A DNA stretch of 64,000 nucleotides from Malacoraja senta (taxonomy: Eukaryota). The notes under the pieces are model-generated. The model made no database searches. It worked only from the letters and a program-made list of their open reading frames with translations, and was not told the DNA's origin. A program made the position numbers and the translations under genes. The DNA lies in contig CM075992.1 in NCBI GenBank assembly GCA_038087875.1, positions 12,340,001 through 12,404,000 of the forward strand, in the 5' to 3' direction. Below, in pieces: positions 1-39,879 of this stretch; position 1 is the first letter of the stretch, and the number at the start of each line of letters is the position of its first letter.

Positions 1-408
1 TGCCTGTCTCTTAATTATTTTCTCTTGTTCCTCTGCCCACTGGCATTCTAGTTGCAATACTTTCCATCCTTTCATAGTGCCATCCTTATTTCGTAACTCT
101 ATCCCTTGTTTACATGCAGTATCCATCCAACTTCGATCTCTACTCTCCTCATGCTTCTTTTCCGCTTCTGCTTTCCACGTCTTAATTCCCTTCTTCCATT
201 TCTTTCCTGCCTTCCTTTCCCATATCAACATTTCTGCTTTTTTAATTGTCTCGACATTCCATGTGCCCCCTACTGGCGCGGCTTCATCCCCCAACTGTTT
301 GGTCAACTTGTAACTTAACATTCTAAATTTCTTATTATACTTAGGATTCAAATAACACATATGTTGGATGGGGGTTCCCCCCTCACTGTTATCCAGAGCA
401 TTCCCCAT
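1..408 (-). CDS. gag: Endogenous retrovirus gag, N-terminal 136 codons (matrix-like), open to the window edge
   Basis: Hand translation from ATG at 408: MGNALDNSEGGTPIQHMCYLNPKYNKKFRMLSYKLTKQLGDEAAPVGGTWNVETIKKAEMLIWERKAGKKWKKGIKTW...KIIKRQA, no stop. Absent from the ORF track because it has no stop in the window. Gly2, a basic patch and a PxGGTW motif resemble gamma/epsilon-like matrix. Lies downstream of LTR, PBS and splice donor. Confidence 0.7.
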   Translation of the reverse strand, partial: MGNALDNSEGGTPIQHMCYLNPKYNKKFRMLSYKLTKQLGDEAAPVGGTWNVETIKKAEMLIWERKAGKKWKKGIKTWKAEAEKKHEESRDRSWMDTACKQGIELRNKDGTMKGWKVLQLECQWAEEQEKIIKRQA

Positions 409-1190
409 AGATAGATAGAGAGAAAGAGAAAGAGAAAGCAGACTTCTTAATTACGAATCGTTCCAAATATATCAACCAGGCCGACTCGCTACTCGAGACC
501 CCAGTTTCTCAATTTGGCTGATTTTTTTATTTTTCTTTACCTCTTTGATATACGACCCAAGTGTCTCAACGAGGCCGCCTCACTAACCGAGACCCCCGTT
601 TCTCAACCTGGCAGACCTAAAATAAGCCCCATGTGTCTCAACGAAGCAGACCCGCTAACCGAGACCCCCCGTTTCTCAACCTGGCAGACTTCTTAATCTT
701 TAATATACAACGCCACTTATTTCTTAATCCGACAACTCCCCGGATGTTTCAATAAGCCAGACGCACACCTCAACCCCCGTATCTCAACCCGACAAAACAC
801 GGATGTCTCAACGAGGCCGATAAGCCCTTAGTAGAGAGAAAAGAAAAAAACAGAGATAGACAGAGAGAGAGAAAGAGAAACCACTCACGTCCTTCTTAAC
901 AAGATACACAAGCCCTTCTTAAAAATACAAGCACAAGTCTGTCTTAAAAATACATACACAATCCCCACTAAAAAAACCCTATAAAGCCCAACTGGTCTTA
1001 CCTTAGTCTGTTTCTAAGAACCTCGGCAGGGAACCTGGATCAACCTCTGATGAAGGATCACAGACGTTCCCGGGAGTTTCTAGGGAGTCGGTCTTACAAG
1101 GGGGCCGATAGAGCTCAGTTATCTCCCTTCCAATCCCGGCAACCTCTGCAACCTCTTGCACAGTCAGCCGTTGATGTGGTCCCAGCGAGG

Positions 1191-1207
1191 CCTGCATAAC
1201 TACGCCA
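1191..1207 (-). promoter_or_regulatory. Primer-binding site, tRNA-Ser-like
   Basis: TGGCGTAGTTATGCAGG one base after the LTR CA; the complement of the vertebrate tRNA-Ser 3' end is TGGCGTAGTCGGCAGGAT (first 9 nt identical, GCAGG retained). Confidence 0.7.
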
Positions 1208-1208
1208 A

Positions 1209-1984
1209 TGAAAAAGTTACTTTTATAACTACTAAACCAGGTTCGCTTCTCAATAAACAGACACCACACAAACTGTTTGGTAGACCAGTTCAAAACTTTA
1301 CTTAACATCGGCCGATGGAAGGGAGCGAGAATTCCAGCTAAGTGACCAATGTAGACACTCGACTGTCCTCGGTCCCCTTCTCTGAACAACAGAATTACAT
1401 CGCATTATATAGTGTTTCTTTGTCACATTAGCACATTCCACAGACATTAGTCATGGTCAGAGGTACAGGAAAAGGCATCACATCAAAGGCCTTTTGTTTA
1501 CAGGTTATGATATACTAAAACATTGGCCATTTGTTTTAGGTCATTTTATCTTCAAAGAGATCACCCTAGCTCTTTCGCTGTTTCCTCTCTGTCATTTGGT
1601 CCTTCATAAACATAGGCCATTTGTTTTATGGCATCTTATCTTTCCACTTCCCTGGATCCTCTCTCATCACTTCGCCCCTCCTAAACATTGGTCATTTGGT
1701 TTACGGCATCTTACTTCAAAGATGTGACTAGCTGTTTCTCTCTTCCTTTATTGCCTCCTCCCCCATAAACATTGGTCATTTGGTTTATGGCATCTTACTT
1801 CAAAGATGTGACTAGCTGTTTCTTTCTCTGTCACTTCCTCACTTGGGAGACAATGTTATGGTATTTATTATCTCAATACCCCAAAACCCGAGGCAACTTA
1901 ACTTGCCTTTCTGTATTATTCTACTGGAGAAAAGCCTGATTTGTGACTAAATATAAGCTGTAAGCTTTTCTTATATTTTTAACA
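1209..1984 (-). promoter_or_regulatory. Retroviral 5' LTR (~776 bp)
   Basis: Minus strand starts TGTTAAAAA (1984) and ends TTTTTCA (1209). U3-like tandem repeats with CCAAT boxes (~1520-1830), GAGGAAGTGA ETS motif (1831-1840), TATATAA (1405-1411), AGTAAA (1297-1302). The 1984 boundary is less certain. Confidence 0.65.
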
Positions 1985-2016
1985 TAATTCAGCTTTATCA
2001 CTACCACAGTCGTTAC

Positions 2017-2169
2017 CTTGACACCGGGATACTGTTTTATCAGTGAATGTAATGCGTCCAGTGTTGAGGACAAATCCATCCTTACAGGTGCACTGATAAC
2101 TTCCCAGAGTGTTGACACATGTTGCATCTGGCCCACAGATGTTTGGGTCGTCCTCACACTCATTGACAT
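2017..2169 (-). CDS. Internal exon encoding one calcium-binding EGF domain, adhesion GPCR E (CD97/EMR)-like
   Basis: tttgtttctactccag acceptor, 153 nt, G|gtaacg donor, phase 1-1. Translation (D)VNECEDDPNICGPDATCVNTLGSYQCTCKDGFVLNTGRITFTDKTVSRCQ: cbEGF consensus with the long C5-C6 loop typical of ADGRE EGFs. Confidence 0.88.
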
Positions 2170-10116: not shown

Positions 10117-11010
10117 TTTGATTTGATTGATTTGATTTGATTGATTGATTTTTTACTTTATTAATCCCCTTATTCAGGGGAAATTCTGATGTCCTTGCAG
10201 CACACTAATAAAAATACAACATAGCATTAAGAAGTTTCACATTAAACATAAAAACATCCCCCCACAATGGTTCCCACTGTGGGGGAAGGCACAAAGTCCA
10301 GTCCCCATCCCCATGTCCACCCATAGTCGGGCCTATTGAGGCCTCCACAGTCGCCGCTACGGGCTCGAATGTTCCTGGCCGTTCTCGCCGGGTGATGGTA
10401 CTCCGGCGTCGGGAGAACCCTCTCAGCGGCTTGGGGTGCCAGGAACGGCCGCCTTCTTACTGGAGACCGCGGCTTCCAAGCCAACAGGCCGCTCTGGACG
10501 GAGCTGCACATACTGGCGATCACGGCGAGAGATCCCAGGCTCCGCGATGTTAAAGTCAGCGCCGCCGCCCGCAGCTGGCCGCTCCACAGACCCGCGATGT
10601 TTTTATCGGCGGTCCCCGCAGCTGGCCGCTCCACGATGTTTTTGTCGGCGGTCCCAGCATACCGGAGTTCCAGCGTGGCGACCCAGACAAGGCATCGCCC
10701 GCTCTGCGATAGCGCTCCAGCGCTGTGCCGCCGCCGAAGCCGAGGTTCTGGCCAGGTCCCCTCAGGAAACGCCGCTCCATGCCCCGCTGGTAGGCCACGA
10801 GGACGGGTCGAAGGCGCTGCTCGGAGTAAGGCAACCCCTCCGACCAGGTAGGGACTCGAAAAACAGTTTCCCCCTTCCCCCCCACCACCCCCCACACATA
10901 AAAAGATTAGGCCCCCTGACTGCACCCTCAACGTACTAAAAATAATAAAAAAGAAGGGGAAAAAACGGACAGCTGCAGGACAGGCAGCCGTTCAGGACAG
11001 CGCCTCCTCT
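10117..11010 (-). mobile_element. GC-rich non-autonomous SINE-like element with (TCAA/TCAAA)n tail, nested in the Penelope
   Basis: Minus strand ends AATAAAGTAAAAAATCAATCAATCAAATC; its head (..GGCTGCCTGTCCTGCAGCTGTCCG) resembles those at ~14380, 43001 and 56843. Confidence 0.55.
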
Positions 11011-13224
11011 GGCATAGCAAGGGGATAGGATGGAGTCGAGGTGAAAATAATTTCAGTGGGACAGGTGCAGGCTGAAACAATGGGTCTGCCAGAGCAGTCG
11101 TGTTCCCACTCCCTCATTTTTACTATAGACATTCAGTCATTCTACTCCTCCATCCCCCACCAGGAAGGCCTTAAAGCCCTCTGTTTCTTCCTCGAACACA
11201 GAACCATCCAATTTCCCTCTACTAACACTCTATTCCACCTAGCAGAGCTGGTCCTCACCCTTAACAACTTCTCCTTCGACTCCTCCCACTTCTATCAAGT
11301 CCAAGGAGTAACTAGGACCACCCCCATGGGCCCCAGTTATGCCTGCCTCTTTGTAGGGTACATTGAACAATCCCTATTCCAGGCTTACACGGGCCTTATC
11401 CCCGAACTCTGTCTCCGTTATATTGATGACTGAATCAGTGTTACCTCCTGCACCCATGCCGAACTCATGGACTTCATTAACTTCACCACCAATTTCCATC
11501 CTGCACTCAAATTCACTTGGACCATCTCCGACACCTCCCTCCGCTTTCTTGATCTCACCATCTCCATCACAGGAAGTAGACTATCAACTGATGTCTATTA
11601 CAAAGCCACTGACTCCCACAACTATCTCGACTACACTTCTTCCCAGCCTATTTCCTGCAAAGACTCTATCCCCTACTCCCAATTCCTCCATCTATGCATC
11701 TGTGCCCAAGATGAGGTACTCCATACTAGGATATCTGAGGTCCTCATTCTTTAGGGAACGGGGGTTCCCCATCCATCATAGATGAGACATCCACTCGTGT
11801 CTCCTTGGTACCCCGCATCTCCGCCCTTGCTCCCCATCCCCCTAGTCACAACAGAGACAGATTCCCCCTAGTCTTTACCTTTCACCCCATCAACCGTCGC
11901 AGACAACATATAATCCTTCTAAATTGTTGCCACCTCCAAGGGGATCCTACACCCGTCACATCTTCCCATCTCCACCCCTTTCCACCTTCTGCAGAGACCA
12001 TTCTCTCTGCAACTCCCTGGTTAACTCATCACTTCTCACCCAAACCACCCCCTCCCCATGTACCTTCCCCTGCAACCGCAGAAGATGCAACACCTGTCCC
12101 TATACCTCCTCCCTTGACTGAGTCCAGGGACCCCGACAGTCCTTTCAGGTTAGGCAGAGGTTTACTTGCATCTCCTCCAACCTCATCTACTGTATCCATT
12201 GTTCAAGATGTGGACTCTTATACATCTACGAGACCAAATGTAGACTGGGCGATCATTTGACTGAACCTACCTGAACTTCCGGTTGCTAAACATTTTAATT
12301 CCCCTTCCCATTCCCACACAGACCTTTCTGTCCGAGGTCTCCACCGTTGCCAGAGTGAGGCTAAATGCAACTTGGAGAAACAGCATCTCATATTTCGCTT
12401 GGGCAACCTAGTGGTAGGAATATTGATTTCTCTAGCTTCAAGTAACCCCGGCAATCCTATTCTCTCTACCCCTCCCGCACCAAAGTCGCACCAGCTTCTC
12501 ATTTTCACCCAACAAACAGCTAACAATGGCATGTTTCCTTTATCATTGTTACTTTTTTGCATATCTTTCGTTCATCCTTCTTTATCTCTCTACATCATAC
12601 TGTAGTCTATAACTCTTGTTTCCCTTATACCTAACTAGTCTGAAAAAGGGTCTCAACCCAAAACGTCACCCATTCCTTCTCTCCCGAGATGCTGCCTGTC
12701 CCGCAGTGTTACTCCAGCTTTTTGTGTCTATCTTTGGTTTAAACCAGCATACAGTATGCAGTTCCTTCAGATGCATTAAACTCCATAAGCATTTCCTCAG
12801 CTCACTTGCTCAGCTGATCAAGACGGTTATAATTATCGATAACCATCTTCACTCTCTATGATATCACCCTCTTTAGTGTCTTTTGTAAGCTGACTGATCA
12901 TGCATTCTGCATTCTCAACCGAATCTTTGATATCAACCACAAATAGCACCAATCGCTGTGGCACAGAACTAGTCACAGGCTTCGAGTCCAAAAAACACCC
13001 ATACCTTCATCAACCTCAATTCTGTATGCAGTTGGACTCTCCCTAAATTCCAGGCAACTTTCAAGATTTTCAAACTTTCAAATGTTCTTATTAAATCTTT
13101 TCCCCTTCACCTTAAACCCATGTCCTCTGGTCCTCGATTCACCTGCTCTTGGCAGGAGGTTCTGTGCATTTACGCGATCTATTCCTCTCATGATTTTATG
13201 CACCATTTTATACACCACGTTTAC

Positions 13225-14232
13225 AGCAGTAACAGGATCGGTCCGAGTCAGCATGGATTTACGAAGGGGAAATCATGCTTGACTAATCTTCTGGAAATTT
13301 TTGAGGATGTAACCAGGAAAATGGACAAGGGAGAGCCAGTGGATGTAGTGTACCTGGACTTTCAGAAAGCATTTGATAAGGTCCCACATAGGAGATTAGT
13401 GGGTAAAATTAGAGCACATGGTATTGGAGGTAGGGTACTGATTTGGCTAGAAAATTGGTTGGCAGACAGGAAACAAAGAGTAGGGATTAATGGGTCCCTT
13501 TCAAAATGGAAGGCAGTGACTAGTGCTGTACCGCAAGGCTCGGTGCTGGAACCACAGCTATTTACAATACACATTAATGATTTAAATGAAGGGATTCATA
13601 GTAACATTAGCAAATTTGCAGATGACACAAAGCTGGGTGGCAGTGTGAACTGTGAGGAGGATGCTATGAGGATGCAGGGTGACTTCGACACGTTGGATGA
13701 GCGGGCAGATGCATGGCAGCTGCAGTTTCATGTGGATAAATGTGATGTTATCCACTTTGGTGGCAAAATCAGGAAGGCAGATTATTATCTGAATGGTGTC
13801 AAGTTGGGAAAAGGGGAAGAACAATGAGATCTGGGGGTCCTTGTTCATCAGTCACTGAAAGTAAGCAGGCAGTGAAGAAAGCAAATCGCATGTTGGCCTT
13901 CATAACAAGACGAGTTGAATATAGGAGCAAAGAGGTCCTTCTGCAGTTGTACAGGGCCCTAGTGAGATCACACCTGTTGTATTGTATGCGTTTTTGGTCT
14001 CCAAATTTGAGAAAGGACATTCTTGCTATTGAGGGTGTGCAGCGTAGGTTCACGAGGTTAATTCCCGGGATGACGGGACTGTCATATGTTGACAGAATGG
14101 AGCGACTGGGCTTGTATACTCTGGAATTTAGAAGGATGAGAGGGGATCTTATTTAAACATATAAGATTATTAAGGGTTTGGACACGCTAGAGGCAGGAAA
14201 CATGTTCCCGATGTTGGGGGAGTCCAGAACCG
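13225..14232 (+). mobile_element. CR1/HER1 LINE ORF2 (RT) fragment
   Basis: [58 protein letters not shown]. Confidence 0.93.
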
Positions 14233-14379
14233 TTGAAGAAAGAGATGAAAAACGTTCCTCCCTCACATAATACACAACTAAAAATAGACTATTACGTACA
14301 TCTAACGCTAACGATAAGACAAAGAAGGAAGAAAGACAGACTGCAGGTGAGCCGCTGCCACAGACACAGCGCTGCCCCG

Positions 14380-15660
14380 AGTATTTTGACCAGGGAGTTG
14401 CGGAGGGTATGATTGCTGTGGAAAGCGGAAAAGGGAAGAGATGGTAAGATGTGGGTAGTGGTAGGGTCCCGTTGGAGGTGGTGAAAATGTCGGAGAATCT
14501 CGGACTATCTGGTATGGAACACCTCATCTTCGGTGCAGATACGCAAAGCAAGGTGTGAAGAAGTGTAGTCCAGATAACTGTGGAGTCAATAGGTTTAGAA
14601 TGCATGTCAATCAATAGTTTATCTCCTGTGATAGAGACGGTGAGATGAAGAAACGGTAGTGAGATGTCGGAGATGGTCCAAGTGCACTTGAGTGCAGGAT
14701 GGAAATTAGTACTAAAGCTAACGACATCAGTGAGTTCTGCATGGGTGCAGGAGGCAGCACCGATGAAGTCTTCAATGTAGCAGAGATAGTGTTCAGGGAT
14801 AGGGCCAGTGTAAGCCTGAAACAGGGATTGTTCAACATACTCTACAAAGCGGCAGGCATAGCTGGGGCCCAAGCAGGTGCTCCGAGCTACGCCTTTGATT
14901 TGGAGGAAGTGAAAGTAATTGAAGGAGAAGTTAAGATTAAGGACCATCTCTGCTAAGCGGAGGAGAATGTTGGCTGGTTCTGCGGTCGAGGAAGAAACGG
15001 GCTTTAAGACCATCCTGGTGGGGGATGGAGGTGTAGAGTGACTGACATGCATATTAAAGATGAGGGAGAGGGGGCCTGGAAAACGGGTCATTGAAGTGAC
15101 GAAGGGCAAGTGAGGTGGCTTGGACATAGGTTGGGAGGGGGATAGGATGCAGTCGAGGTATGTGGAAATACCATGGGACAGGAGCAAGCAGAAACAATGG
15201 GTCGGCCATGGCTGGTCTGTTTATGGATTTTGGGGAGAAGGTAAAACTGGGCCGTGCGGGGCTGGGGAAGGCTTTGGAGGCTTTGGAGAGCAGACCGCTG
15301 GAAGTGATCAAATCAGAAATGGTCTGTGAGATTATGGCCTGGTGCTCATCTGTGGGATCATAGTCCAAGGAAGAGTAGGAGGAGGTGTCTGAGAGTTTGC
15401 ACCTGGCCTCAGCGCCAGACTACCACGGCACCTCCCTTGTCGCGGGGTTTGATGATAATGTTGGGGTTGCTGCAGAGTGAGTGGAGGGCTATACATTCAG
15501 AGGGGCAGTGGTTAGAGAAGGTAACGGGAGTGGAAAAGTTGAAATAAAAAGGTCAAAGGAGAGTAGAAGGCTGTTGGAGAGTCTAAGAGGAGGGGGACCG
15601 TTGGAGATGGGAGAAGGGGTCATCACTGGGTGGTAAGGTCTTACCATAGAAAAAGGCACA
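14380..15660 (-). mobile_element. Penelope-like RT fragment
   Basis: FLQIKGVARSTCLGPSYAC..CYIEDFIG..LPFLHLTVSI. Confidence 0.8.
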
Positions 15661-16361
15661 GAGTTGGAGACGATGGAAGAAAAGCTCTACATCATGGCAG
15701 ACCCGGAACTCATTGAAGTAGGGGCGGAGCAGAACAAAAGTGAGGCCTCCGTTGAAGACAGAACGTTCCATATCCAATGGGAAGACCAATGTACTAAACG
15801 CCTACTAACCATCCAATCTACCTGTGACACCACTTTCGAGGAACTATGCACCTGCACTCTTAGATCCCTCTGCTTTACAACTCCCCAGAGCCCTGCCATT
15901 CACTGTGAAAGTCTTGCCGTGGTTATGACTTCCCAACACCTCTTACTCGTCTACATTAAGCTCTGTGAACCATTGCTCAGCCCACTTGCCCAGCCGATCA
16001 AGTTCTTGCGGTAATGTTCGATTAACAACTTTACTATCAACGATACCACCTATTTTAGTGTCATCTACAAACTTACTACTCATGCTTTGTGTGGTCTTAA
16101 CCAAAACATTACTATAAACCATGAACAGCAATGGGCCCCAACACAAATCCCTGAGGCACACAACTAATCACCGGCCTCCAGTTGGAAAAACAACCCACCA
16201 CCGCCCTCTGGTTCCTTCCACGAAGACAATTCTCCATCCAGCTGATAGACACAGTACGCTGGAGTAACTCTGCAGGTCAGGCAGCATCTCTGGAGAAAAT
16301 AGGTGGTGTTTCGAGTCAAGACACATCTTCAGACGTCTTCAGACCCTGTACAAATGTAAAC

Positions 16362-16948
16362 ATAGAAACATAGAAAATAGGTGCAGGAGTAGGCCATTCG
16401 GCCCTTCGAGCCTGCACCGCCATTTGATATGATCATGGCTGATCATCCAACTCAGTATCCCATCCCTGCCTTCTCTCCATACCCCCTGATCCCTTTAGCC
16501 ACAAGGGCCACATCTAACTCCCTCTTAAATATAGCCAATGAACTGGCCTCAACTACCCTCTGTGGCAGAGAATTCCACAGATTCACCACTCTCTGTGTAA
16601 AAAATGATTTCCTCATCTCTTTCCTAAAAGTCTTCCCTCTTATCCTTAAACTGTGACCCCTAGTTCTGGACTTCCCAAACATCGGGAATAATCTTCCTGC
16701 ATCTAGCCTGTCCAACCCCTTAAGAATTTTGTAAGTTTCTATAAGATCCCCCCTCAGTCTTCTGAATTCCAACGTGTACAAGCCGAGTCTATCCAGTCTT
16801 TTCTCATATGAAAGTCCTGCCATCCCAGGAATCAGTCTGGTGAACCTTCTCTGTACTCCCTCTATGGCAAGAATGTCTTTCCTCAGATTAGGAGACCAAA
16901 ACTGTACGCAATACTCCAAGTGTGGTCTCACCAAGACCTTGTACAAAT
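16362..16948 (-). mobile_element. Young CR1/HER1 3' fragment
   Basis: LVRPHLEYCVQFWSPNLRKD...GYGEKAG open frame; HER1 3' UTR with (TTTCTATG) tail. Confidence 0.9.
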
Positions 16949-17009
16949 GTACAACTAAAGAAAAAGTTATATTCCTGAACTGCAACTCCATTGCAATCCA
17001 TTGTGAATT

Positions 17010-18450
17010 CTATAGAAACATATAAAATTCTTAAACGATTGGACAGGCTAGATGCAGGAAAATTGTTCCCGATGTTGGGGGAGTCCAGAACCAGGGATCG
17101 CAGTTTAAGAATAAGGAGTAGGTCATTTAGGACTGAAATGAGGAAAAACATTTTCACCCAGAGAGTTGTGTATCTGTGGAATTCTCTGCCACAGAAGACA
17201 GTGGAGGCCAATTCACTGGATGTTTTCAAGAGGGAGTTAGATTTAACTCTTAGGGCTAATGGAATCAATGGATATGGGGAAAAAGCAGGAACATGATACT
17301 GATTTTAGATGATCAGCCATGATCATATTGAATGGCGGTGCTGGCTCTAAGGGCTGAATGGCCTACTCCTGTACCTATGTTTCTAATACATGCCAATATG
17401 TCATTTGCTTTCCTCACTAGATGCTGCCTCTTCATTCTGTCTGAGCAGAGTTGATGAATGCCCTTGTGGAAACCAGTGTTGTTTAACAACCTGTGTCTGT
17501 GCTGTAATATCACAAATAATCTTTCCAGTTATATCACAGCAGCAGGATCAGGGAACTCTGGCCGAGGAGGGATTTGAAACACTGGTCAGGAAATAGATGG
17601 AGGCGCATGTCATGTATAGGTAGCTGGGATCAAACAAATCCCCTGTAGCATGTGGGATACAGGAGAACAGTTTGTGTGGAAGTCGGAAAGGCAAAACTGG
17701 AACATCTGGAAAGCTATTGACATTACAGAAGAGGTGTTGATGCTCTTGAGGCTCCAGGGGTTAACCAGGTCCACCCTTGCATGTTTTAGGGAGCTGAATA
17801 AGAAATTGCTTAGTCCCTGGCTTAGAATGTTGTTTCTTGGCTAGCTGTGAGATATTAGATGACTGAAATGTGGCTGATGTGCCTTTGTTTAAGAACTCTA
17901 GAAGACTAAGCCGGGGAACTGCAGGCCGGGTGAGTCTAACATCAGTTATGGGTCAGTTAATAGAGGATATTCTGAGCGACAAGGTATATCTGCATTTGGA
18001 AAAGCAAGGACTGATTATGAATAGTCAACATGGTCATAAGGTCATAAGTGATAAGAGCAGAATTATGCCATTCGGCCCATCAAGTCTACTCCCCCATTCA
18101 ATCATGCGTGATCTATCTCTCCATCCTAATCCCATTCTCCTGCCAAGAATCTATCTATCTCTGCCTAAAAAATATCCACTGACGGCCTCCACAGCCTTCT
18201 ATGGCTACGAATTCCACAGATTCACCACCCTCTGACTAAAGAAATTCTTACTCATCTCCTTCCTAAAAGAACGTCTTTTAATTCTGAGGCTACGACCTCT
18301 AGTCCTAGACTCTCCCACCAGTGGAAACATCCTCTCCACATCCACTCTATCCAACCCTTTCACTATTCTGTACATTTCAATGAGGTCCCCCCTCATTCTT
18401 CTAAACTCCAGCGAGTAGAGGCCCAGTGGCGCTAAACGCTCATCATATAT
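17010..18450. mobile_element. Cluster of CR1 fragments (plus 17010-17388, plus ~17640-18030, minus ~18045-18450)
   Basis: Translations ETYKIL..FTQRVV, VSLTSVMGQL..SQHG and RRMRGDLIE..FFSQRVVNLWN. Confidence 0.8.
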
Positions 18451-18451
18451 T

Positions 18452-19130
18452 ACATGGCCGTCCGAAGGGGGGGGGGGGGTGCTTTGGGTGCGGTCGCACC
18501 CCCCTTTTTTTCCACAATAAAAACAAATTCCGAGAAAGAAAAAAAAATTGGAAACAATCAGTGTTTCCACTTTGAAGGAATTTACCGGAATGATTTGGAA
18601 AAAAAATATTTGCGACCTGCGCAGTTGGGGGAAGCTGGTGACGCTGCAGCGACGTAAAATGACTCCATCTCCCCGCGCGCGCGCAGTGGGCAGGATTAGA
18701 CGCCGCCATTTTCAATGCATCGTCTTAACGCCCCGGGCCTAGTTTGGGTGAATGGGATGACCCGCGGGATGATTTGGGGGAAAAACAGGAGTGCCCGCTT
18801 CTCCGTGCCGGGGGGGGGGGGGGGCTGTGGTATCTCCCAGCATGGAGCCTCGCCGTCGGTCAACCTGGCGGCCATAGACGAGTCCGCTGCGGGCGGCCGG
18901 TCCGGCGAGACCGTTCTCCCGTTGCCGGGCGGGAAGCAGGAAGGACTGAATCTGAACAGTGCTGGCAGCGGCCATGACCCGACACCAGGTGCCGCTTCGG
19001 CAGGGGTCCATGCCCCCCCACCCCCCGCGCCGGTCCCTCGACCCCCCACCCTCGCCTCCCCCCCGCCCACGCCGGTCCCTCGCTTTGGTCGGCGGCGGCA
19101 GCGGCGGAGGCTGTATTGCGGGGTGGGGGG
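18452..19130. mobile_element. GC/CpG-rich insertion, possibly a non-autonomous DNA transposon
   Basis: Abrupt CpG-rich block truncating a CR1, starting CATGGCCGTCCGAAGGGGG; no matching right TIR found. Confidence 0.3.
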
Positions 19131-19264
19131 AGGGATATGGGACAAATGCAGGCAGGTGGGACTAGTGTAGCTGGGACATGTTAGCCTTGTGAGCAGGTTG
19201 GGCCAAAGGGCCTGTTTATACGCTGTATCATTCTATGACTATACATTAAATCCACCCCCACTAT

Positions 19265-20460
19265 TTAGTTTAAAGCCTTAACTACAGCCCTAGTTATCCA
19301 TGCTGCCGTGATCCTGGTCCCAGCAGTGTTTAGGTGGAGTCCATCCCATCGGAACAGCTCCCTCCTTCCCCAATACTGATGCCAATGTCCCACAAATTCA
19401 ACCCCACTTCTCCCACACCAATATTTGTGCGATGCGCTTAACTTTGTAATTTCATCCACCCTATGCCAATCTGCTCGTGGCTCAGGTAGCAATCCAGAGA
19501 TTATTACCTTTTTGGCAGTGCTTTTTAATTTACTTCCTATTTGCTCAAATTGCCTCTGCAGAACCTCTTTCTGTGATTTACCTATGTTGTTGGTACCAAC
19601 ATGGACTGTGACAACTAGATTTTCCCCTCTAATGTCCTCTGTAGGTCAGACGGGCACCCAACACAGTCTTTGGGACTCTTGTTCCTTGCAACGGAGAATT
19701 GTGTCAATTCCCCTGACTATACTGTCCCAAATTACAACTACATGCCTCTTCTGCCCCCCCTCTTGAATGGCTCCCTTTGCCTGCTCCAGCAAGGTACTGA
19801 CTTCCCCACCAGATAAGGGACCGACTGGACTCACTGCCTCAAAAAGACAGCCAGCATCATCAGAGACCCATATCACCCTGGCCACACACCCATTTCAATC
19901 CTGCCATCGGGAAGAATGTATAGGAGCCTGAAAATTGTAGCGTCCAGATTCAGAAGCAGATTCTTTACAACCATCAGGGTATTAAACATTTCAACTGCCA
20001 AACAAGCTCAGAACTACATTGACTTGGAGGCATTGATTTTGTATTTGCACTGTTATTAAACAGACAATTATATATATTTATATATATATCCACATATGTA
20101 GTTCCATAAATATCCATGTATACACATATACATTAATATCTGTTGTGCTGCTGCAAGTAAGAATTTCATTGTTCTGGACAGTGTCAATAAAACATTCGAT
20201 GACCAGCTGCAGATGTGGTCATGAGTAACCACACTGGGGTCCACCAGCTCCCACATCACGCAGCTACAGCACACCCACGTGATCCTGCATCCTTACTTTA
20301 TTCCCAATGGCTCCTCTTTAAACTGCCCACTGCTGCTGCTGTTGTTGTTGCTCCACTGGGCTTGAACCTGACTCACCCGCTAGTTCAACACTCCTTTCCT
20401 CAGCTCTTCTCGCCGAAGCCTCTCGAGCCTCAGCCTCAGTTCTGCACTTGGCCTCAACAC
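19265..20460 (-). mobile_element. CR1 ORF1 remnants (zinc finger plus SGNH esterase) interrupted by a plus-strand Rex1 3' piece (~19790-20195)
   Basis: CCSCVMWEL..DHIC, VVVIWDSIVRG and LFRWDGLHLNTAG; Rex1-like RDPYHPGH..LPSGRMYRSL. Confidence 0.7.
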
Positions 20461-20649
20461 GGCACTTAGCCTCGGTTAGGAAGGGTTTAGAGGGCTTGGG
20501 GCCAAATGCAGGGAAAAAAGACTAGCCTAGTATGCCAACTTGTATAACATAGACCATGTGGACAGAAGGGCCAGTTTTGGTGCTGGGTGACCCTAGTTAG
20601 TTGGCAGGGATATATACAGGACCTACATTCCCACTCATACATTTGCCCT

Positions 20650-20969
20650 TCACCATTACAGTTCCTGCTCAATGTTGCCCGTCACTGTGGTTGTTAGAGG
20701 AAGCTCACCGACTGGGAACAATGAGCTCTTCATTCCAGAAACCCAGAATAGGTGTGGGCTTGCATGTTTTGCATGTTTATCCAAAACATACATCAACTAC
20801 ACTGCCATCCTGCTCTGCAGTTTATTCACTTGAAAAGCAGAAGTGGAAAGTAGTCGGTGAGCTGTCACTGAACACAACACCACTCGGGGAAGATTGTCGC
20901 CAAGACTGAGGAGGTTGTAGGTGGTCACATCTCCCTCCATCTCAGACAGCAACATCACTACAGATCCAG
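20650..20969 (+). promoter_or_regulatory. Possible promoter and non-coding first exon
   Basis: Non-repeat island with RUNX TGTGGTT (20686-20692), GGAA motifs, AAAAGCAGAAGTG (20833-20845), an ATG-free stretch, then CAG|GTAAGA donor at 20969/20970. Confidence 0.4.
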
Positions 20970-21491
20970 GTAAGAAGACAGCTCCATCGCTTGATCAAAC
21001 TCAGAATTTTACCTTTGGTTGTTAACTGATTGTGTGCGTCTGTGAGTGAGTGTGTAAGTGAGTGTATGTGCCTCTGTGTGTTAACTCACTGTAGTGCCCT
21101 AAGATAAAGAGGGGTGCATCACACCTCTGTGTGGAGGGGGGAGAGGGTCCCAGTGAGGCAGAGAGGAAGATTTCACCTTCCACCGTGAGGGAAAGAGGCA
21201 ATAGTCAAGAGAGTTTTATTGTTATGTGTCCCAGATAGGACAATGAGATTCTTACTTGCTGCAGCACAACAGAATATGTAAACATAATACAAGACGGAAG
21301 ATAAAGGTTCAGTGTGTCTATAGACCATAGACCATATATACACAATAAATAAACAGATATAGTGCAATAATGATAATAGACTGTTATTGTTCAGAGCTTA
21401 TTTGATGTTGTGTTTAATCGCCTGATGGCTGTGGGGAAGAAGCTGTTCCATGTAATGACATGGATAGAGGGAGAGAGAGAGATCACATCTT

Positions 21492-21605
<114 letters not shown>

Positions 21606-21628
21606 GGGGGGGTGTCCAGTGATGGAGA

Positions 21629-21910
21629 GTTTAGTTTAGTTTAGAGATACAGCATCGAAACTTGCCCTTCAGTCCACAGTCTGCACTGACCAGCAATCCC
21701 CGCACATTAACACTATCCTACACACACCAGGGACAATTTTACATTTATACCAAACCAATTAACCTACAAACATGTGTGTCTTTGGAGTGTAGGAGAAAAC
21801 CAAACGCAGGTCACGGGGAGAACGTACAACCTCCGTACAGACAGCACCCGGTCAGGATTGAACCCGGGTCTCTGGGGCGGTAATGCAGCAACTCTACTGC
21901 TGCGCCACCA
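21629..21910 (-). mobile_element. HE1-type V-SINE
   Basis: Reverse complement of the family at 6016-6330, including the (CTAAA)n tail. Confidence 0.85.
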
Positions 21911-22555
21911 TGGAAGAGATTACACCTCTGTGTGAGGAGGAGGGGTCTCAGTGAGGGAGTGAGAGGGAGAATGATATCTCACCTCTGTGAGAGGTCCCAG
22001 TGAGGGAGAGGGGGGGAGATCACACCTGTGTATGTGGGGTGGGGGTCCCAGTGAGGGAGAGGGGGGGGAGATCACACCTGTGTATGTGGGGTGGGGGGGT
22101 GGGGGGAGAGTGAGGGAGAGGGGGAGAGGGGGGGGAGGGGGAGATCATTTTCCAATGATCTATAGATTCAGGATCAGTTCCTGTGGATTGGAGGGTAGCT
22201 AATGTTACAACACTTTTTAAGAAAGGAGGGAGAGAGAAAACAAGGGATTATAGACCAGTTAGTCTCACGTTGGTGGTGGGGAAGATGCTGGAGTCAATTA
22301 TAAAAGATGAAATAGCGGCACATTTGGATAGCAGTAGCAGATTGATTTACGAAGGGGAAATCATGCTTGAATAATTCTCTGGAATTTTTTGAGGATGTAA
22401 CTAGGAAAATGGACAAGGGAGAGGCAATAGTGTACCTAGACCTTCAGAAAGCATTTGATAGGGTCCCACATAGGAGATACGCAGGCAAAATTATAGCACA
22501 TGGTATTGGGGGGAAGATAATGACATGGATAGAAAATTGGTTGGCATACAGGAAA

Positions 22556-23817
22556 AATAGAAGCACGGAATATAGGTGCAGGAGTAGGCCATTCGGCCCT
22601 TCGAGCCTGCACCGCCATTCAATATGATCATGGCTGATCATCCAAATCAGTATCCTGTACCTGCCTTCTCTCCATACCCCCTGATCCCTTTAGCCACAAG
22701 GGCCACATCTAACTCCCTCTTAAATATAGCCAATGAACTGGCCTCAACTACCTTCTGTGGCAGAGAATTCCACAGATTCACCACTCTCTGTGTGAAAAAT
22801 GTTTTTCTCATCTCGGTCCTAAAAGACTTCCCCCTTATCCCTAAACTGTGACCCCTTGTTCTGGACTTCCCCAACATCGGGAACAATCTTCCTGCATCTA
22901 GCCTGTCCAACCCCTTAAGAATGTTGTAAGTTTCTATAAGATCCCCCCTCAATCGTCTAAATTCTAGCAAGTACAAGCTGAGTCTATCCAGTCTTTCTTC
23001 ATATGAAAGTCCTGCCATACCAGGAATCAGTCTGGTGAACCTTCTCTGTACTCCCTCTATGGGAAGCATGTCTTTCCTCAGATTAGGAGACCAAAACTGT
23101 ATGCAATACTCCAGGTGTGGTCTCACCAAGGCCCTGTACAACTGCAGTAGAACCTCCCTGCTCTTATACTCAAATCCTTTTGCTATGAATGTTAACATAC
23201 CATTTGCTTTCTTCACTGCATGCCTACTTTCAATGACTGGTGTACCATGACACCCAGGTCTCGTTACATCTCCCCTTTTCCTAATAGGTCACCATTCAGA
23301 TAATAGTCTACTTTCGTGTTCTTGCCACCAAAGTGGATAACCTCACATTTATCCACATTATACTGCATCTGCCATGCATTTGCCCACTCACCCAACCTAT
23401 CCAAGTCAAGTTCCAGCCTCCTAGTATCCTCCTCACAGCTAACACTGCCCCCAGCTTCGTGTCATCCGCAAACTTGGAGATGTTGCATTCAATTCCCTCG
23501 TCCAAATCATTAATATATATTGTAAATAGCTGGGGTCCCAGCACTGAGCCTTGCGGTACCCCACTAGTTACTGCCTGCCATTCTGAAAAGGACCCGTTTG
23601 TTCCTACTCTTTGCTTCCTGTCTGCCAGCCAGTTCTCTATCCACATCAATACTGAACCCCAATACCGTGTGCTTTAAGTTTGCATACTAATCTCTTATGT
23701 GGGACCTTGTCGAAAGCCTTCTGAAAGTCCAGATATAACACATCCACTGGTTCCCCCTTATCCACTCTACTAATTAAATCCTCGAAAAATTCTATAAGAT
23801 TCGTCAGACATGATTTA
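22556..23817 (-). mobile_element. Young CR1/HER1 3' portion nested in the plus-strand CR1
   Basis: RT ORF pieces 22647-23216 and 23308-23649 ([17 protein letters not shown]). Confidence 0.9.
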
Positions 23818-24300
23818 CAAAGAGTAAGGATTAACAGGTCCCTTTCAGAATGGCAGGCAGTGACTAGTGGGGTACCGCAAGGCTCGGTGATGGGACCGCA
23901 GCTATTTACAATATACATTAATGATTGATATGAAGGGATTAAGAGTAACATTAGCAAATTTGCTGATGACACAAAGCTGGGTGGCAGTGTGAACTGTGAG
24001 GAGGATGCTATGTGGATGTTTTGGTCTCCAAATTTGAGGAAGGACATTCTAGCTATTGAGGGACTGCAGCGTATGTTCACGAGGTTAATTCCCGGGATGG
24101 CGGGACTGTCATATTTTGAAGGAATGGAGTGACTGGGCTTGTATACACTTTAATTTAGAAGGATGAGAGGGTACCTTATTGAAACATATAAAATTATTAA
24201 GGGATTGGACACGCTAGAGGCAGGAAACATATTCCCGATGTTAGGGGATGCCAGAACCAGGGGCCACAGTTTAAGAATAAGGGGTAGGCCATTTAAAACG

Positions 24301-26564
24301 TACATGGATAAAACTGTTATATACAAATCCCACGGCTAGAATATTTACAAACCAAAGGTTGTCATCTAAATTTAGCCTATCTAGAGGTTGTAGACAAGGA
24401 TGCCCGTTATCTCCATTATTATTTGCGCTTGCTATTGAGCCACTTGCAGAAAGAGTCAGGGGGCATCAGGAAATACATGGGTATAACACAAAGGACACAG
24501 TGAATAAAATTTCTCTATACGCAGATGATGTATTAATTTACATTACAAAACCAGAAATTAGTATTCCAAACTTATTAAAGCTAATAACCCAATTTGGTTC
24601 ACTTTCAGGATACAGAATAAATTGGAATAAAAGTGAAATTATGCCAATAAGGGAACATAACAAACAGATAATACAACAATTTCCATTTAAAATAGTAAAG
24701 GAAAAATTTAAATATTTAGGTATTTATGTAACTAAGATATATACATCATTATTTAAAGCAAATTTTCCACCATTACTGAATAAACTACATAAGAATATTC
24801 AATACTGGAAAACACTTCCTATCTCAATGGTTGGCAAAATTAATGCCATAAAAATGATTTTTTTACCGCAAATATTATACCTTTTTCAGACAATTCCGAT
24901 ATATCTGGCAAAAAACTTTTTTTTTAAACTGGACTCTATTGTTAATGATTTTATCTGGGATTATAAGAATCATAGGATAAACAAAAGACATTTGTGTAAA
25001 TCAAAAATAAATGGAGGCTTGGTTTTACCCAACTTTTTGTTTTATTTCTGGGCAGTTAATATTAAAAATATGAATTTCTGGTTGGAAGAAATAGATCATC
25101 AACCAGACTGGTTAAAAATGGAAAAGGAAGATTGTTTACCTTTTGATATCGGTTCGATATTATTTGCTACGTCTAAATTAAACAAAAAAATTTATAGGGA
25201 AAACCCTATAATATTTAGTGCTATACGAATTTGGAAACAATTAAAAAAGACATTAAAATTAGATAATTTATCACTTTTTCTTCCAATTGTGAATAACCCT
25301 TTGTTTAAGCCTTCATAGTTGGACGGGGGTATTACACAATGGAAGAATTATGGAATTAAAAATATGGGACAACTTTACAAGGAAGGCACTTTTCTGACAT
25401 TTCAGGAGTTGCAACAGACTTATGGACTTCGAGGAAATGATTATTTCAGATATCTTCAACTTAGAGATTATGTAAAATCGAATACTCAAAATTTTCGAAT
25501 TAGAAATTCAGAATTCTTGATGAATGTTGGAACAAACATCCTAATACAGAAAAATTAATATCTTATATATATAATATCTTATTAGACAGTGACATTCCAT
25601 CGACGGACTTACACAGACAAACATGGGAAAAAGAATTAAATCAAATAATAACGAAAGATACTTGGGAAGAAAGTTTGCAACACATACATCAATGTTCATT
25701 AAACGCCAGACATTCTCTAATACAATTTAAAGTAATACATAGGTTACATTATTCAAAAACAAAACTACATAAAATCTTTCAACATATCTCACCTATATGT
25801 GATAAATGTCAACATTTAGAAGCTACCTTATCTCATATGTTTGCAAACTGTATAAAAATTAAAAATTTCTGGGTAAATATTTTCAGTATAATATCTAAAA
25901 TAACCAGCACACAATTGGACCCAGATCCAAAATTAATAATACTTGGAATATTAGAATTAAATCAAACATTTAGAACAACACAAAGAAACTTTATTGATTA
26001 TAGTTTAATAACAGGAAAAAAATTAATTCTAAAATTTTGGAAAGGCCCTGCGACCCCCACAATCAAAATGTGGATTATAGAAATGACGGAGACCTTAAAC
26101 ATGGAAAGAATCAGATTCTCCCTGTTGGACAAACAGGAATTATTCGTTGGAACATGGTCTCCTTTTATTGATTACTTAAAGGGTCAGAATAGTTCAGCAC
26201 AGGAACCTGACTAGCACTCGGGCTAAAGAATGGATGAAATGCTATACTTAGAAATGTACGAATATATCTCGAATGAAGTTTTTTATTTTAATAAATTTTT
26301 CCATTCTTCTTTAACTATCTTTTTCCTTTTTTTGTTGTTTTTTTTTTTTTTTTTTTTTTTCCTTCTCTTTCTTTTCTTTCTTTACTTCATCTATCTCTTT
26401 AGTTCTATTTAGTTAAAAAAAAAAAAAAAAAAGGCAAAAGGTATTGGAGACAATGTAATAATAATTGACAATATTATCAATTTAAAAATGTAAGACTGTA
26501 ATGATGTAAATAGGTTGTGTACTTATCTCCAATAAAAAATATTTTCAAAAAAATTTTAAAAAAT
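24301..26564 (+). mobile_element. 5'-truncated L1-clade LINE (ORF2 RT to CCHC, 3' UTR, poly-A)
   Basis: GCRQGCPLSPLLF, YADDVL, FKYLG, CDKC..HMFANC; one stop (25316) and a frameshift; AATAAA plus A-rich tail; TAAAACG on both flanks. Confidence 0.9.
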
Positions 26565-30237: not shown

Positions 30238-30559
30238 CATCGGAAACATGTTTCCTGCCCTAGCATGTCCAATCCCTTAATAACCTATATGTTTCATTAA
30301 GATGCCCTCTCATCCTTCAAAATTACAGTGTATACAAGCCCAGCCGTTCCATTCTTTCAACATATGACAGTCCCGCCATCCCGGGAATTAACCTCATGAA
30401 CCTACACTGCACTCCCTCAATAGCAAGAATGTCCTTCCTCAAATTCTAGCTATTGAGGAACTGCAGCGTATGTTCACGAGGTTAATTCCCGGGATGGCGG
30501 GACTGTCATATTTTGAAGGAATGGACTGGGCTTGTATACACTTTAATTTAGAAGGATGA

Positions 30560-30980
30560 TACAAATATAGGGTGCAAAAGTACTTTAAAAAAAATTGAGG
30601 TCAGGTAAGGGGGGATGCTTGTTGAAGAGTTGGTATGTCCCATTTACGTAATGCTCATAAAAATATTTGTTTCTCTCTTTTTCCTCTTCCTCTTTCTCTT
30701 TCTTTTCTAGGGTCTATTTCTTAACTCTTTTTCTTTTGTTTTTAATTTTGCTCTTATAGGGTCTTCGTCCTTTTTTGTTGTCACATTTTCTACACTTTCA
30801 CGTTTTCCTTCACTTTCTTCTTTCTTTCAATCTTTTCTTTTTCTAGTGTAAAAAATAAATGGAGTACATTAATTGTAAGAAGACATAAGTGACGAGTACT
30901 AATGTATGTGGTTGTAATGTAATGTACTTCAAATAAATAAAAATAAAAAAATAATACAATTTAAAAAATAAATTAAAAAA
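30560..30980 (+). mobile_element. L1 3' UTR/poly-A stub with 15-bp TSD
   Basis: AATTTAGAAGGATGA at 30545-30559 and 30981-30995; T-rich UTR, AATAAA, A-rich tail. Also in copy 2 (~44413-44833). Confidence 0.75.
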
Positions 30981-33900
30981 AATTTAGAAGGATGAGAGGG
31001 TATCTTATTGAAACATATAAAATTATTAAGGGACTGGAGACGCTAGAGGCAGGAAACATATTCCTGATGTTAGGGGAGTCCAGAACCAGGGGGCCACAGT
31101 TTAAGAATAAGGGGTAGGCCATTGAGAACGGAGATGAGGAAAAGCTTTTTCACCCAGAGAGTTGTCAGTCTGTAGAATTTTCTGCCTCAGAAGGCAGCGG
31201 AGGCCAATTCTCTGGATGCTTTCAAGAGAGAGTTCGATAGAGCTCTTCAAGATAGCGGAGTCAAGAGATATGGGGAGAAGTGTTTAAGAAGGAACTGCAG
31301 ATGCAGCAGCATCCATGGAGCGAAGGAAATAGGCAACGTTTCGGGCTGAAACCCTTCTTCAGGGGGAGATAACCTTAATAACCTATATGTTTCATTAAGA
31401 TCCCCTCTCATCCTTAAAATTACTGTGTATACGAGCCCAGACGTTCCATTCTTTCAACATATGACAGTCCCGCCATACCGGGAATTAACCTCATGAACCT
31501 ACGCTGCACTCCCTCAATAGCAAGAAAGTCCTTCCTCAAATTTCGAGCACCAAAACTGCTCACTAGGGCCCTGTACAACTGTAGAAGAACATCTTTGCTC
31601 CTATACTCAACTCATCTTGTTATGAAGGCCAACATGTCATTTGCTTTCTTCACTGCCTGCTGTACCTGCATGCTTACTTTCAGTGACTGATGAACAAGTG
31701 TGAATATGCATGGGTTTGGGTACTTGGGAAAATGGCAGATGTCTGTGAAACCTGCTTCACTGAGGCTGACATCACTTGCAGGGAGCTGGAGACCTATGTG
31801 ACATAGATGGCTCCAGGGAGTCTGAAGCCTGGGTAGGGGCTGCAGAAAGTATCTGCCCTTGTGACCTACATGTTGCCACAATGTCTGGGATTCTGCAGGT
31901 GCAGCAAAGCCCTGATGCTAAAGGCAAGCTTGTGGTTGGTTGGGGAGATGTTATGTCTCAACTATGTATTGGTACCTTCCCGCCGGTACTTGTGATTGGT
32001 CCAGAAGAGTGGCATCACCAAAGATGTTTCTTTATCTAATGGTAATGTTTCTTTACTTAATGGGAATGTTTTTCCCTGTGCTATGTGTTGAAACTATGTT
32101 ATGCATTGTTATAGGATTGGGCCAAAGAGTTGTCGTTCTATGTATTTTGCAGCCGGTATCAGTAATTGGTTTGTAGGTGCTGAGGACCAGTATTTAGCGG
32201 GTAGGAGGGTTCGAGGCCTCGGGGGGGGGGGGGTTTCAGGCCCCACCTGTGTGTGTTCGAGTACCATACAGTACTGGGTATTATCAGTGCTAAGGTAAAA
32301 TTGGCTGGAATACTTTAAAAATTAGCACTGAATTTTAGGACGCGTCTGTGATAATTCTAGGACTGTGATCCTAATTTTTTTTTCATTTTTGAAGCATCAG
32401 AAAATGGGTACAGATTATGTTACCATATCCAAGCTCATTTTTTCCAAATGTACATATCAAAACAGAACATTTGAGTATTATACAAACAATATGAATGGGC
32501 ATGTTTATAAAAACATTAAAAAATATATTTTAATAAACAAACAAATGAGGGGGGGAAAAAGTAAATAATAAAAATAACTAAATACATAATTAAAGTGCAG
32601 GTGACTACAGTACATAGGGAGCAGTTCAGTGCAATAATTCTTTGTGAAGACTCTTGTTTCTACAGCTTCTAACTCTCCTGTCTTCTATCTCTTACATAAT
32701 TTCATTAAAATGAATGGTTTAGAGTGTAGATAGGTTTGTGTTATGTGTCAATATTCAGCTGTGCAAGAAATGACATAAATGGTTGCCAGATTTTATTAAA
32801 TTGGTTGACTCTATCCTTTAGAACATATCTTATTCTTTCTAAATGTAATGTACTGGTCAAGTCATGAAGCCACATTCTGGAATTGGGAGCTGTTGTTGTT
32901 TTCCATGACATGAGCAGTGGTTTCTTTGCCGTAATGAGACAGTAGGAGTGGAATTGTCATTGAGCAGTTGTGAGTTGTCTTGATGTTTCAGATACCCCCA
33001 AGATGATTAATACGGGTTCTGGGTTTAATGGAATGTTAAGAATGTCTGAGATATTCTTAACTATATCAGACCAGAAAGAGGTGAGTTTAGGGCACGATAC
33101 AAAGTTATGAAAAAGAGTAGCATCTGAGGAGTGACATTTATCACAAGTAGGAGAAACATTTGGATATATACTGTGTATTTTTGCCTTGGAGTAGTGAAGT
33201 CTATGTATAATTTTGAACTATATGAGGCAGTGTCTAGCATTGGTTGAGCACCTATGTATAAGTTTGAGGCTTTCCTCCCATATTTCATCTGGTATTTGCA
33301 CATTTATGTATTTTCCCCGATTGATCTTATACTTGCTAGAGGATGGAGAAGATATTAATAGGACATCATACATATAGGAGATAAATTTGTCATCATATGG
33401 TGATGTTTTAAGGGAGTCATCTATTTGAGACTGCCTCTCAACTTCAAATCCTGACAGATGCTTTCGTATATAATCCCTGATTTGCAAGTATCTGAAGAAG
33501 TTACTATTTGGGAGATCAAATTTCTTTCGTAGCTGTGTGTAAAGGTGGCAAACGTACCATCGATATATAGGTCTCGGACACTGTGGATTCCTAATTCACT
33601 CCATGTAGAGGAAGTCTTATCTAAAATAGATGGTTTGAATGTGGGGTTGTTTGCTACGGACAAAGCGAGAGATATACTGTAGGTTTAAATCAAGGCAAGG
33701 CAAGGCAAGTTTATTTGTATAGCACCTTTCAACCACAAGGTAATTCAAAGTGCTTTACATAAAACATTTAAAGCATTTGAAAGAAACACATATAAAATGA
33801 CATTTAGATATAAAATGATTATTAGATTATTCTGATAATAATTACAAAATTAAAAGCAATCAAATAAAATATTTAAAATAGAATAAAACCAGGAATAGAA

Positions 33901-34437
33901 GTTACAGTGCAGTATAGATAATTAATAAATTGTATTGTTTACTGAAAGGCAGCGGCAAACAGAAAAGTCTTCAGTCTAGATTTCAAAGAGCTGAGAGTTG
34001 CAGCAGACCTGCAGTTTTCTGGGAGTTTGTTCCAGATATGTGGTGCATAAAAATTAAATGCTGCCTCTCCATGTTTAGTTCTGACTCTGGGGACACAGAG
34101 CAGACCTGTCCCAGACGATCTGAGAGGTCTGGGTGGTTCATAGCTAAGCAGAAGATCAGAAATGTATTTTGGCCCTAAACCATTCAGTGCTTTGTAAACC
34201 AACAGTAGTATTTTGAAATCAATTCTTTGACAGACAGGAAGCCAGTGTAAAGACCTCAGAACTGGAGTAATGTGATCTACTTTTTTGGTCTGAGTGAGGA
34301 CTCGAGCAGCAGCGTTCTGAATTAACTGCAGCTGTCTGATCGACTTTTTAGGGAGACCTGTAAAGACACTGTTACAGTAGTCGAGCCTGCTGAAGATAAA
34401 TGCATGGACAAGTTTTTCCAAATGCTGCGGAGACATA

Positions 34438-39606: not shown

Positions 39607-39879
39607 AAGCCCTGTCCCACAGTGCGAGTTGATTCCAAGAGTTCTCCCGAGTTTGCCCTGATATAAACTTGGAGATTTACGGTATTGGCCACTCATCGGT
39701 ACTCGGGGCTCCCGTGGACATTTTTCAACGAGTACCTGCTGTTAGCGGTACAAGCCGATAAGTGACGTCCCCGAGCTCCGAGGTGCCCGCTACGTTCATT
39801 CTCCGTGCTTACCATGAGTTTGATTTTTTTTTAAACTCGGGAGAGCACTTGAATGAACTCGCACCGTGGGACAGGGCTT
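39607..39879. mobile_element. Harbinger-like MITE (273 bp)
   Basis: TIR AAGCCCTGTCCCACRGTGCGAGTT (1 mismatch), TAA/TTA flanks; empty site in the paralog near 29850. Copy 2 at 53448-53720. Confidence 0.78.

Follow-up and report, generated by a model that had tools for sequence, protein, structure and literature searches.

Endogenous retroviruses (ERVs) of cartilaginous fishes, including epsilon-like ones, have already been described (PMC4422223; PMC6001957). In the Pol tree of Han (2015; PMC4422223), lineage I of the elephant-shark CmiERV elements groups with snakehead retrovirus (SnRV), and lineages II and III group with the epsilonretroviruses. One lineage II element, located on scaffold 324, was dated by the authors to approximately 54 My. 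The gamma-like clade Jin has been reported from amniotes only and clade Mu from nearly all jawed vertebrates (PMC6001957). A broad screen gave fairly high copy numbers of ERV reverse transcriptases (RTs) in cartilaginous fishes, mostly of clade III, and an older review lists 100-700 insertions for the elephant shark. According to the criteria of Wang and Han (2023; PMC10435555), an invading ERV (ERVi) has identical LTRs, intact gag-pro-pol-env, and insertional polymorphism.

In this work, we analyzed a stretch of 64,000 nt from Malacoraja senta (hereafter, the window) and found that positions 1..2000, read on the minus strand, very probably represent the 5' end of an orthoretrovirus that has integrated here and is epsilon-like (class I, clade Mu), with the class read from Gag and from an integrase tail encoded at a different locus. 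From right to left, the minus strand contains a host exon, an LTR, a primer-binding site (PBS), a long leader, and an open gag frame that leaves the window. A preliminary description of this DNA had proposed an ERV 5' end consisting of an LTR, a PBS, a splice donor, and a gag starting with Met-Gly, and all of these (the donor as a donor-like site) are present on this strand in proviral order. It had also noted a gag missed by the ORF track, which agrees with our finding of an ATG at 408 that begins Met-Gly and continues for 136 codons without a stop to base 1. This gag is absent from the stop-to-stop ORF track because its frame is open-ended at the window edge.

For comparisons with other organisms, we used contigs from four runs (X1, X3, X8, and X15); the stretch is partly present in 20 of the 21 listed runs (four organism codes, 11 studies). 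For substitutions, the contig figures reported here draw on 40 of 165 rows, and for indels on 12 of 32; they further cover 15 of the 25 joints, 24 of the 480 loose ends, and 32 of the 5623 pieces.

The 5' LTR (1209..2000, minus strand) is 792 bp in length and has TG...CA termini. Among the 12 TG starts in 1900-2100, the one at 2000 is the best match to the reverse complement of the LTR 3' end (CA at 1209), with a terminal inverted repeat of 8/10; this level is reached by 106 of the 9464 TG 10-mers in the window background. Moreover, the host contigs of runs X3 (organism B) and X8 (organism D) both cease matching at exactly 2001. Based on this inverted repeat and these contig breaks, we placed the 5' end of the LTR at 2000. 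The TG at 1984, to which the LTR had been drawn in the preliminary description, was rejected because its inverted repeat matches at only 6/10 positions and the host contigs break at 2001; the LTR itself stands, but its earlier boundary was 16 nt short. The stop of the X3 and X8 contigs at 2001 is read here as an empty site, although these contigs could instead be paralogous copies of the exon. Both contigs extend exactly 60 letters past 2001 with no match to the window, which suggests a common repeat or branch point just beyond the empty site.

Outside the ERV lies a 153-nt, phase 1-1 calcium-binding EGF exon (2017..2169, minus strand) that is ADGRE5/EMR2-like and has ADGRE5 as its best PDB match. 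The LTR begins 16 nt past the donor of this exon and has the same orientation as the ADGRE-like gene; integration took place 16 nt into an intron of this gene, in the sense orientation. In X1, the depth of the EGF exon is 185-326 compared with 76 beside it, which suggests that paralogous copies of the exon exist. A single EGF exon of this host gene was found in the 64 kb. It is possible that the poly(A) signals of the LTR truncate the host ADGRE-like transcript.

Within the LTR, the U3 region has four copies of a 75-90-nt unit (1502..1824, minus strand), three of which contain a CCAAT box. A TATA box (TATATAA; 1405..1411, minus strand) is present by sequence and R may start near 1382. The AGTAAA at 1302-1297, together with a GT-rich stretch at 1273-1261 (1261..1302, minus strand), is a putative variant polyadenylation signal according to general LTR anatomy (PMC3601003), and the R/U5 border would lie near 1278. 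Two AATAAA sites are also present, at 1869 and 1752. Closer to the 5' end, a U3 segment (1873..1931, minus strand) is specific to a subfamily that is abundant in organism A. The depth at 1883-1892 is 12,800-26,300 in X1 versus 382 in X3 and 63 in X8, all as summed contig depth. Loose contig ends at 1872 and 1932 (among 24 of the 480 loose ends) and joints at 1875-1927 in X3 and 1859-1927 in X15 (among 15 of the 25 joints) coincide with the limits of this segment.

The family is multi-copy in the three organisms represented by X1, X3, and X8. The summed contig depth exceeds that of the flank by 172 (X1), 280 (X3), and 2001 (X8) times for the leader/gag and by 537 (X1), 1368 (X3), and 4890 (X8) times for the LTR, ratios that are not copy numbers because overlapping contigs were summed. 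The summed depth on the LTR is 2.4-4.9 times that on the leader/gag (X1 3.1, X3 4.9, and X8 2.4). None of the runs listed with the stretch is given as RNA; run X15, for which an RNA nature is a guess, covers the element and not the flank. This coverage was set aside as evidence of expression, as a high-copy DNA trace would look alike.

For the flank, differences from the window were found at 2 of 333 positions in X1, 18 of 231 in X3, and 23 of 322 in X8. Inside the element, most of the X1 depth shares the letters of the window at 278-279 (~70%) and 1251 (62%), and X3 and X8 do not. As these letters and the depth of the U3 segment 1873-1931 favor X1, this copy belongs to a subfamily whose amplification took place in the organism A lineage, once this had diverged by 7-8% from the B/D sequences, be they orthologues or paralogues. 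The host-flank divergence of 7-8% bounds the insertion age from above only. Thus, the earlier notion of a fairly young element holds in relative terms, in that the insertion postdates this divergence and belongs to a lineage-specific subfamily, but no absolute age follows from it; sharks are assumed to accumulate substitutions slowly (PMC4422223).

The PBS (1189..1207, minus strand) is of the tRNA-Ser(AGA/TGA) type and is interrupted after its first 9 nt. Read from 1207 to 1189, these 9 nt are complementary to the 3' end of tRNA-Ser-AGA/TGA as published; a 3-nt interruption and five more pairs follow, for a total of 14/18 with one gap when compared by eye. The tRNA-Ser-like PBS of the preliminary description is therefore recovered, in two blocks. 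A single instance of the gapped motif is present in the window, compared with 0/100 shuffles, a lenient comparison given that the pattern was derived from the same site, and the 9-mer alone was attained in 8/100 shuffles. A literature search with the 9-mer returned unrelated primer tables only. Six loci obtained from scans with U5-PBS patterns were discarded as chance findings, with the match limited to the 19-26-nt pattern and no relative encoded.

The leader (409..1188, minus strand) is ~780 nt long and rich in repeats, with 25-nt units at 904-975 and 72-94-nt units at 456-836. The number of repeats differs between copies, and joints that skip 173-179 nt from 521-528 occur in X1, X3, and X8 (among 15 of the 25 joints). 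Its CpG observed/expected ratio is 0.81 versus 0.27 in the flank, and its predicted folding is no better than that of shuffles (z -0.71). The splice donor that had been claimed corresponds to AAG/GTAAG (997..1004, minus strand; cut between 1002 and 1001), a candidate that is donor-like by its letters and the sole regex match in 1-2400 of the minus strand. No spliced joint at 1002/1001 was found among 15 of the 25 joints. A frame of 101 codons (1003-1308, minus strand; ATG at 1308 and stop at 1005-1003) runs across R-U5-PBS and ends one base short of the donor-like site. It has no Pfam match and its length is within background. We rejected this frame as a spliced env leader because it terminates ahead of the donor-like site.

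The 5' part of gag (1..408, minus strand) encodes a matrix domain (approximately residues 1-90) and a following helix and is open to the window edge. Across the window, 2424 background frames were examined and 73 of them are open over this length; the same is true of 0/20000 shuffles of the A-rich gag segment. The length of an open frame is by itself weak evidence for gag; homology and fold are what establish it. Pfam gave no match in the 136-aa protein of the window itself. An AlphaFold model of the matrix protein, built on 12 sequences, has a pLDDT of 78.7. In a VIA structure search of 48,161 chains, the MLV matrix came first (Z 9.1, rmsd 2.8, and 78 residues aligned), and matrix proteins of retroviruses occupy seven of the ten best rows. 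This enrichment weighs more than the Z of 9.1, which is middling to modest for helical models. Foldseek found nothing at E <= 0.001 in either the PDB (MLV matrix at rank 8, E 5.5) or BFVD (WDSV Gag-Pol at rank 7, E 1.2), and the ESM Atlas gave no match at 0.9 for the matrix. The window protein is basic: 28 of its 136 residues are Lys or Arg. In all seven N-termini available for the matrix family (window 393-408, minus strand), Gly2 and Asp6 are conserved. The N-myristoylation signal G-x2-3-[S/T], which is typical but not universal (PMC8278194, Table 2), was found in none of these seven, as Asp replaces the usual Ser/Thr.

An exhaustive protein search gave 10 matches. Two of these have names, and both are annotated as uncharacterized host proteins: XP_078286998.1 (P0003) from the skate Rhinoraja longicauda and XP_072335647.1 from the catshark Scyliorhinus torazame, whose matrix regions are 52% and 37% identical, respectively. 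Both are truncated or fused gene models. The relatives were aligned as a set of nine sequences (A1) and a set of 12 out of 16 (A2), with P0012, P0015, and P0016 outside both. P0009, a repetitive protein of 772 aa, was dropped as a false match. A search for long proteins with A2 found none among 6314 candidates.

Among 146 candidates, one longer relative was found, namely P0002 (566 aa; 68% identical over 124 aa). This protein carries PPPY, MFPLR, an MHR-like E-x4-aromatic-x2-R in which the first Gln is absent, and one CCHC box. In Pfam, it matches zf-CCHC (E 1.1e-6) and, weakly and under the curated cut-off, Gag_p30 (E 0.021). Clusters of retroviral capsids match its residues 245-465 with scores of 0.90-0.91. 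A p30-type capsid, a PPPY-type late domain, and a single Cys-His box are thus found in P0002, not in the window protein itself. Its single-sequence model is poor (pLDDT 38.6), and a search with P0002 for proteins of similar length returned only P0002 itself among 7750 candidates. The skate relative P0003 fuses the matrix directly to an MLV-type integrase tail (MLVIN_C, E 1.6e-12) and also matches the structure of the MLV integrase C-terminus; its gene model was produced automatically and comes from a different species and locus. No usable pol-bearing locus of the family was obtained from viral contigs with P0002 or metagenome contigs with P0001.

These relatives bear on whether the element could be a Ty3/gypsy LTR retrotransposon. 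LTRs, a PBS, and a zinc-knuckle Gag occur in gypsy elements too, and the PDB matches of P0002 include, well below the top, a Ty3 Gag (E 0.37). However, gypsy Gag has no matrix domain, whereas an N-terminal matrix fold is found here, and the relatives have a PPPY late domain, a match to retroviral capsid clusters, and an MLV-type integrase tail. We consider a gypsy origin scarcely credible. For the orthoretroviral reading, the matrix fold, the Gag motifs of P0002, the MLVIN_C match, and a likeness to the epsilon-like CmiERV lineage II agree with the class I-like ERV that had been suggested earlier. Its placement in a chondrichthyan lineage is likewise in line with the named relatives from skate and catshark and with motifs in common with elephant-shark CmiERV lineage II. 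The two named relatives on their own would point to a cartilaginous fish as host, with a ray or skate the likelier.

The direct junction of matrix and integrase tail in P0003 also raises the possibility of a non-autonomous derivative, i.e., an internally deleted LTR-leader-gag element amplified in trans by a helper ERV, with little or no pol beyond the window edge. Deletion joints inside gag in other copies are in keeping with this, as is the abundance in organism A of a subfamily with a substitution at an otherwise invariant matrix position. However, the deletion joints occur at single-copy depth (34-113 versus 10^4), and P0002, the closest full Gag, is complete. Such a derivative is a possibility that we regard as doubtful, and it is compatible with the orthoretroviral reading that we prefer.

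The preliminary description also suggested that this copy could be intact. This is unsupported because the PBS is interrupted, an invariant residue is changed (residue 44, at which all 10 covering relatives share another residue), and private differences are present. At five sites (163, 296, 369, 578, and 1516, the last a 1-nt gap), the state of the window is shared by none of the X1 contigs among the listed rows, with the caveat that contigs drop rare variants. Given these marks of decay, a copy that is now passive is more likely. An alternative is that the copy is intact or nearly so, very recent, and possibly unfixed, with the PBS and matrix differences representing tolerated subfamily variants rather than decay. 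The gag is open across all 136 visible codons, and several differences are subfamily traits (e.g., the states at 278-279 and 1251 that prevail in X1). In X1, the LTR has 3.1 times the internal depth, which points to few solo LTRs, and the leader retains CpG. Sense insertions beside a donor are usually purged over time. Apart from the marks of decay, this alternative is opposed by deletions inside gag in other copies (joints 46-341 and 251-341, among 15 of the 25 joints), by the matrix-integrase fusion of the skate relative, and by the absence of invading ERVs in 13 cartilaginous fishes in the screen of Wang and Han (PMC10435555). Taken together, we find it unlikely that the copy is intact.

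For the remainder of the window, several features unrelated to the ERV were observed. A 13-kb direct duplication (30238-43248 and 44091-57091; 99.7% identical) flanks a 200-N gap (43249-43448) and is probably a false assembly duplication or, alternatively, a very young tandem duplication. It includes a Tc1/Sleeping Beauty-like element of 1629 bp (34432-36060; copy at 48284-49912) that looks young. Its 219-bp inverted repeats agree at 95.9%, and its transposase frame is open over ~340 aa and encodes HTH and DDE domains. A 438-aa RT frame (RVT_1) is located at 37721-39034 (minus strand), and a PIF1-helicase fragment with an adjoining frame is located at 41356-42913 (minus strand). We take the adjoining frame (42524-42913), for which Pfam gave no match, to be Helitron-like. 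Long open frames that lack a Pfam match also lie in two GC-rich stretches (10245-10991 and 18200-19232), which are possible CpG islands or first exons.

In the explanation that we propose, the LTR ends, PBS, leader, and gag stand in proviral order, as observed, and the further steps follow what would be expected from retroviral biology. The CCAAT repeats of U3 and the TATA box would start the genomic RNA near 1382, a host tRNA-Ser would prime reverse transcription at the PBS, and the donor-like site of the leader would splice to env. Translation of Gag would start from the ATG at 408, and its basic, helical matrix domain would target membranes. As in the relatives, the Gag of this copy would go on with PPPY, a capsid, and one zinc knuckle, and pol would end in an integrase of the MLV/epsilon type. 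The family has many copies in several related species, and the data show in outline that a subfamily marked by a distinct U3 segment expanded in one lineage and yielded this insertion.

A bolder scenario would have an undescribed, Ser-primed, epsilon-like lineage with a Pfam-absent Gly2...Asp6 matrix and hundreds to thousands of copies in rays or sharks, of which the youngest subfamily is still invading one lineage, with this copy unfixed and its LTR poly(A) cutting the ADGRE-like transcript. We rate this as speculative and rather improbable. If true, the host transcript would be cut just after the EGF exon, giving a secreted, EGF-only form, and no ERV would have been found invading a cartilaginous fish before this one, as the screen in PMC10435555 counted none in 13 species. 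The insertion is apparently absent in two other organisms, as judged from the X3 and X8 contigs. Should the youngest subfamily be polymorphic and have intact members, it would fill the invading-ERV gap, and the effect of an ERV on an immune-receptor gene could be tested here.

As epsilon-like ERVs are already known from cartilaginous fishes, this class of object is not new. We found no description of this family in the literature searched, which is consistent with the "poorly described" lineage of the preliminary description; subscription papers, Repbase, and Dfam lie outside this scope and may contain the family. The exact Gag motifs were not found in the consensus sequences of Xu et al. (2018; PMC6001957), a file in which long runs are cut (one unrelated match for six terms). 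What this locus adds is a high-copy family that seems to be unnamed and that underwent a burst in one lineage, which could serve as a marker for dating or relationships among rays or sharks. It also adds a family of matrix proteins that Pfam misses and that gene pipelines label as uncharacterized host proteins, and evidence that a Ser primer is used by epsilon-like and SnRV-like lineages alike in cartilaginous fishes.

Among the described systems, the gamma- and epsilonretroviruses (class I) provide one comparison. The matrix fold is closest to MLV MA, and P0002 has PPPY and a single Cys-His box as does MLV. Unlike MLV, WDSV, SSSV, and ZFERV, the present element has no Pfam Gag_MA match, has Asp6 rather than Ser/Thr (as in all seven N-termini), and has a Ser primer. 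Since the gamma-like clade Jin has been reported only in amniotes, the epsilon-like clade Mu fits.

A Ser primer is also found in CmiERV lineage I (the SnRV-like scaffold 2; PMC4422223) and in the ERV-S elements XtERV-S and ERV-S.1-Dbi, and therefore it is not a marker of class I. In the CmiERV dataset, the PBS 9-mer was found once only, in scaffold 2 (PMC4422223, supplement). The Ser primer could be accounted for by an SnRV-like ERV or another member of class III, and because CmiERV lineage I has a tRNA-Ser PBS, the SnRV-like reading was at first a serious rival; clade III also dominates the ERV RTs reported from cartilaginous fishes. However, according to Table 2 of PMC8278194, the Gag of XtERV-S/ERV-L has neither a Cys-His box nor Gly2, whereas P0002 has one CCHC box, PPPY, and Met-Gly. 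In addition, P0003 carries MLVIN_C, the Gag and integrase tail of scaffold 2 do not resemble those of our family by eye while those of the epsilon-like scaffold 324 do, and the choice of primer tRNA is not conserved along phylogeny (PMC5210030). On balance, we give a class III or SnRV-like origin only a slim chance.

The closest likeness of the epsilon-like reading is to the lineage II element of scaffold 324, as compared by eye. Scaffold 324 and our family share the Met-Gly start, GTP-x3-M, WP-x2-G, and the end of the matrix helix, followed by a Y-x-PW capsid start, an MHR-like stretch, and one CCHC box. Scaffold 324 and the present element also have a donor soon after the PBS and repeats in the leader, and the integrase tail of scaffold 324 resembles that of the skate relative P0003. 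They differ in that the PBS of scaffold 324 is not of the Ser type, its leader is shorter than that of the present element, and its LTR ends are TGTGG...ACA rather than TGATA...TTCA. Judged by the Gag and integrase tail of the relatives and by this resemblance to CmiERV, the best call is that the Malacoraja senta element is an orthoretrovirus of class I, epsilon-like and Ser-primed.
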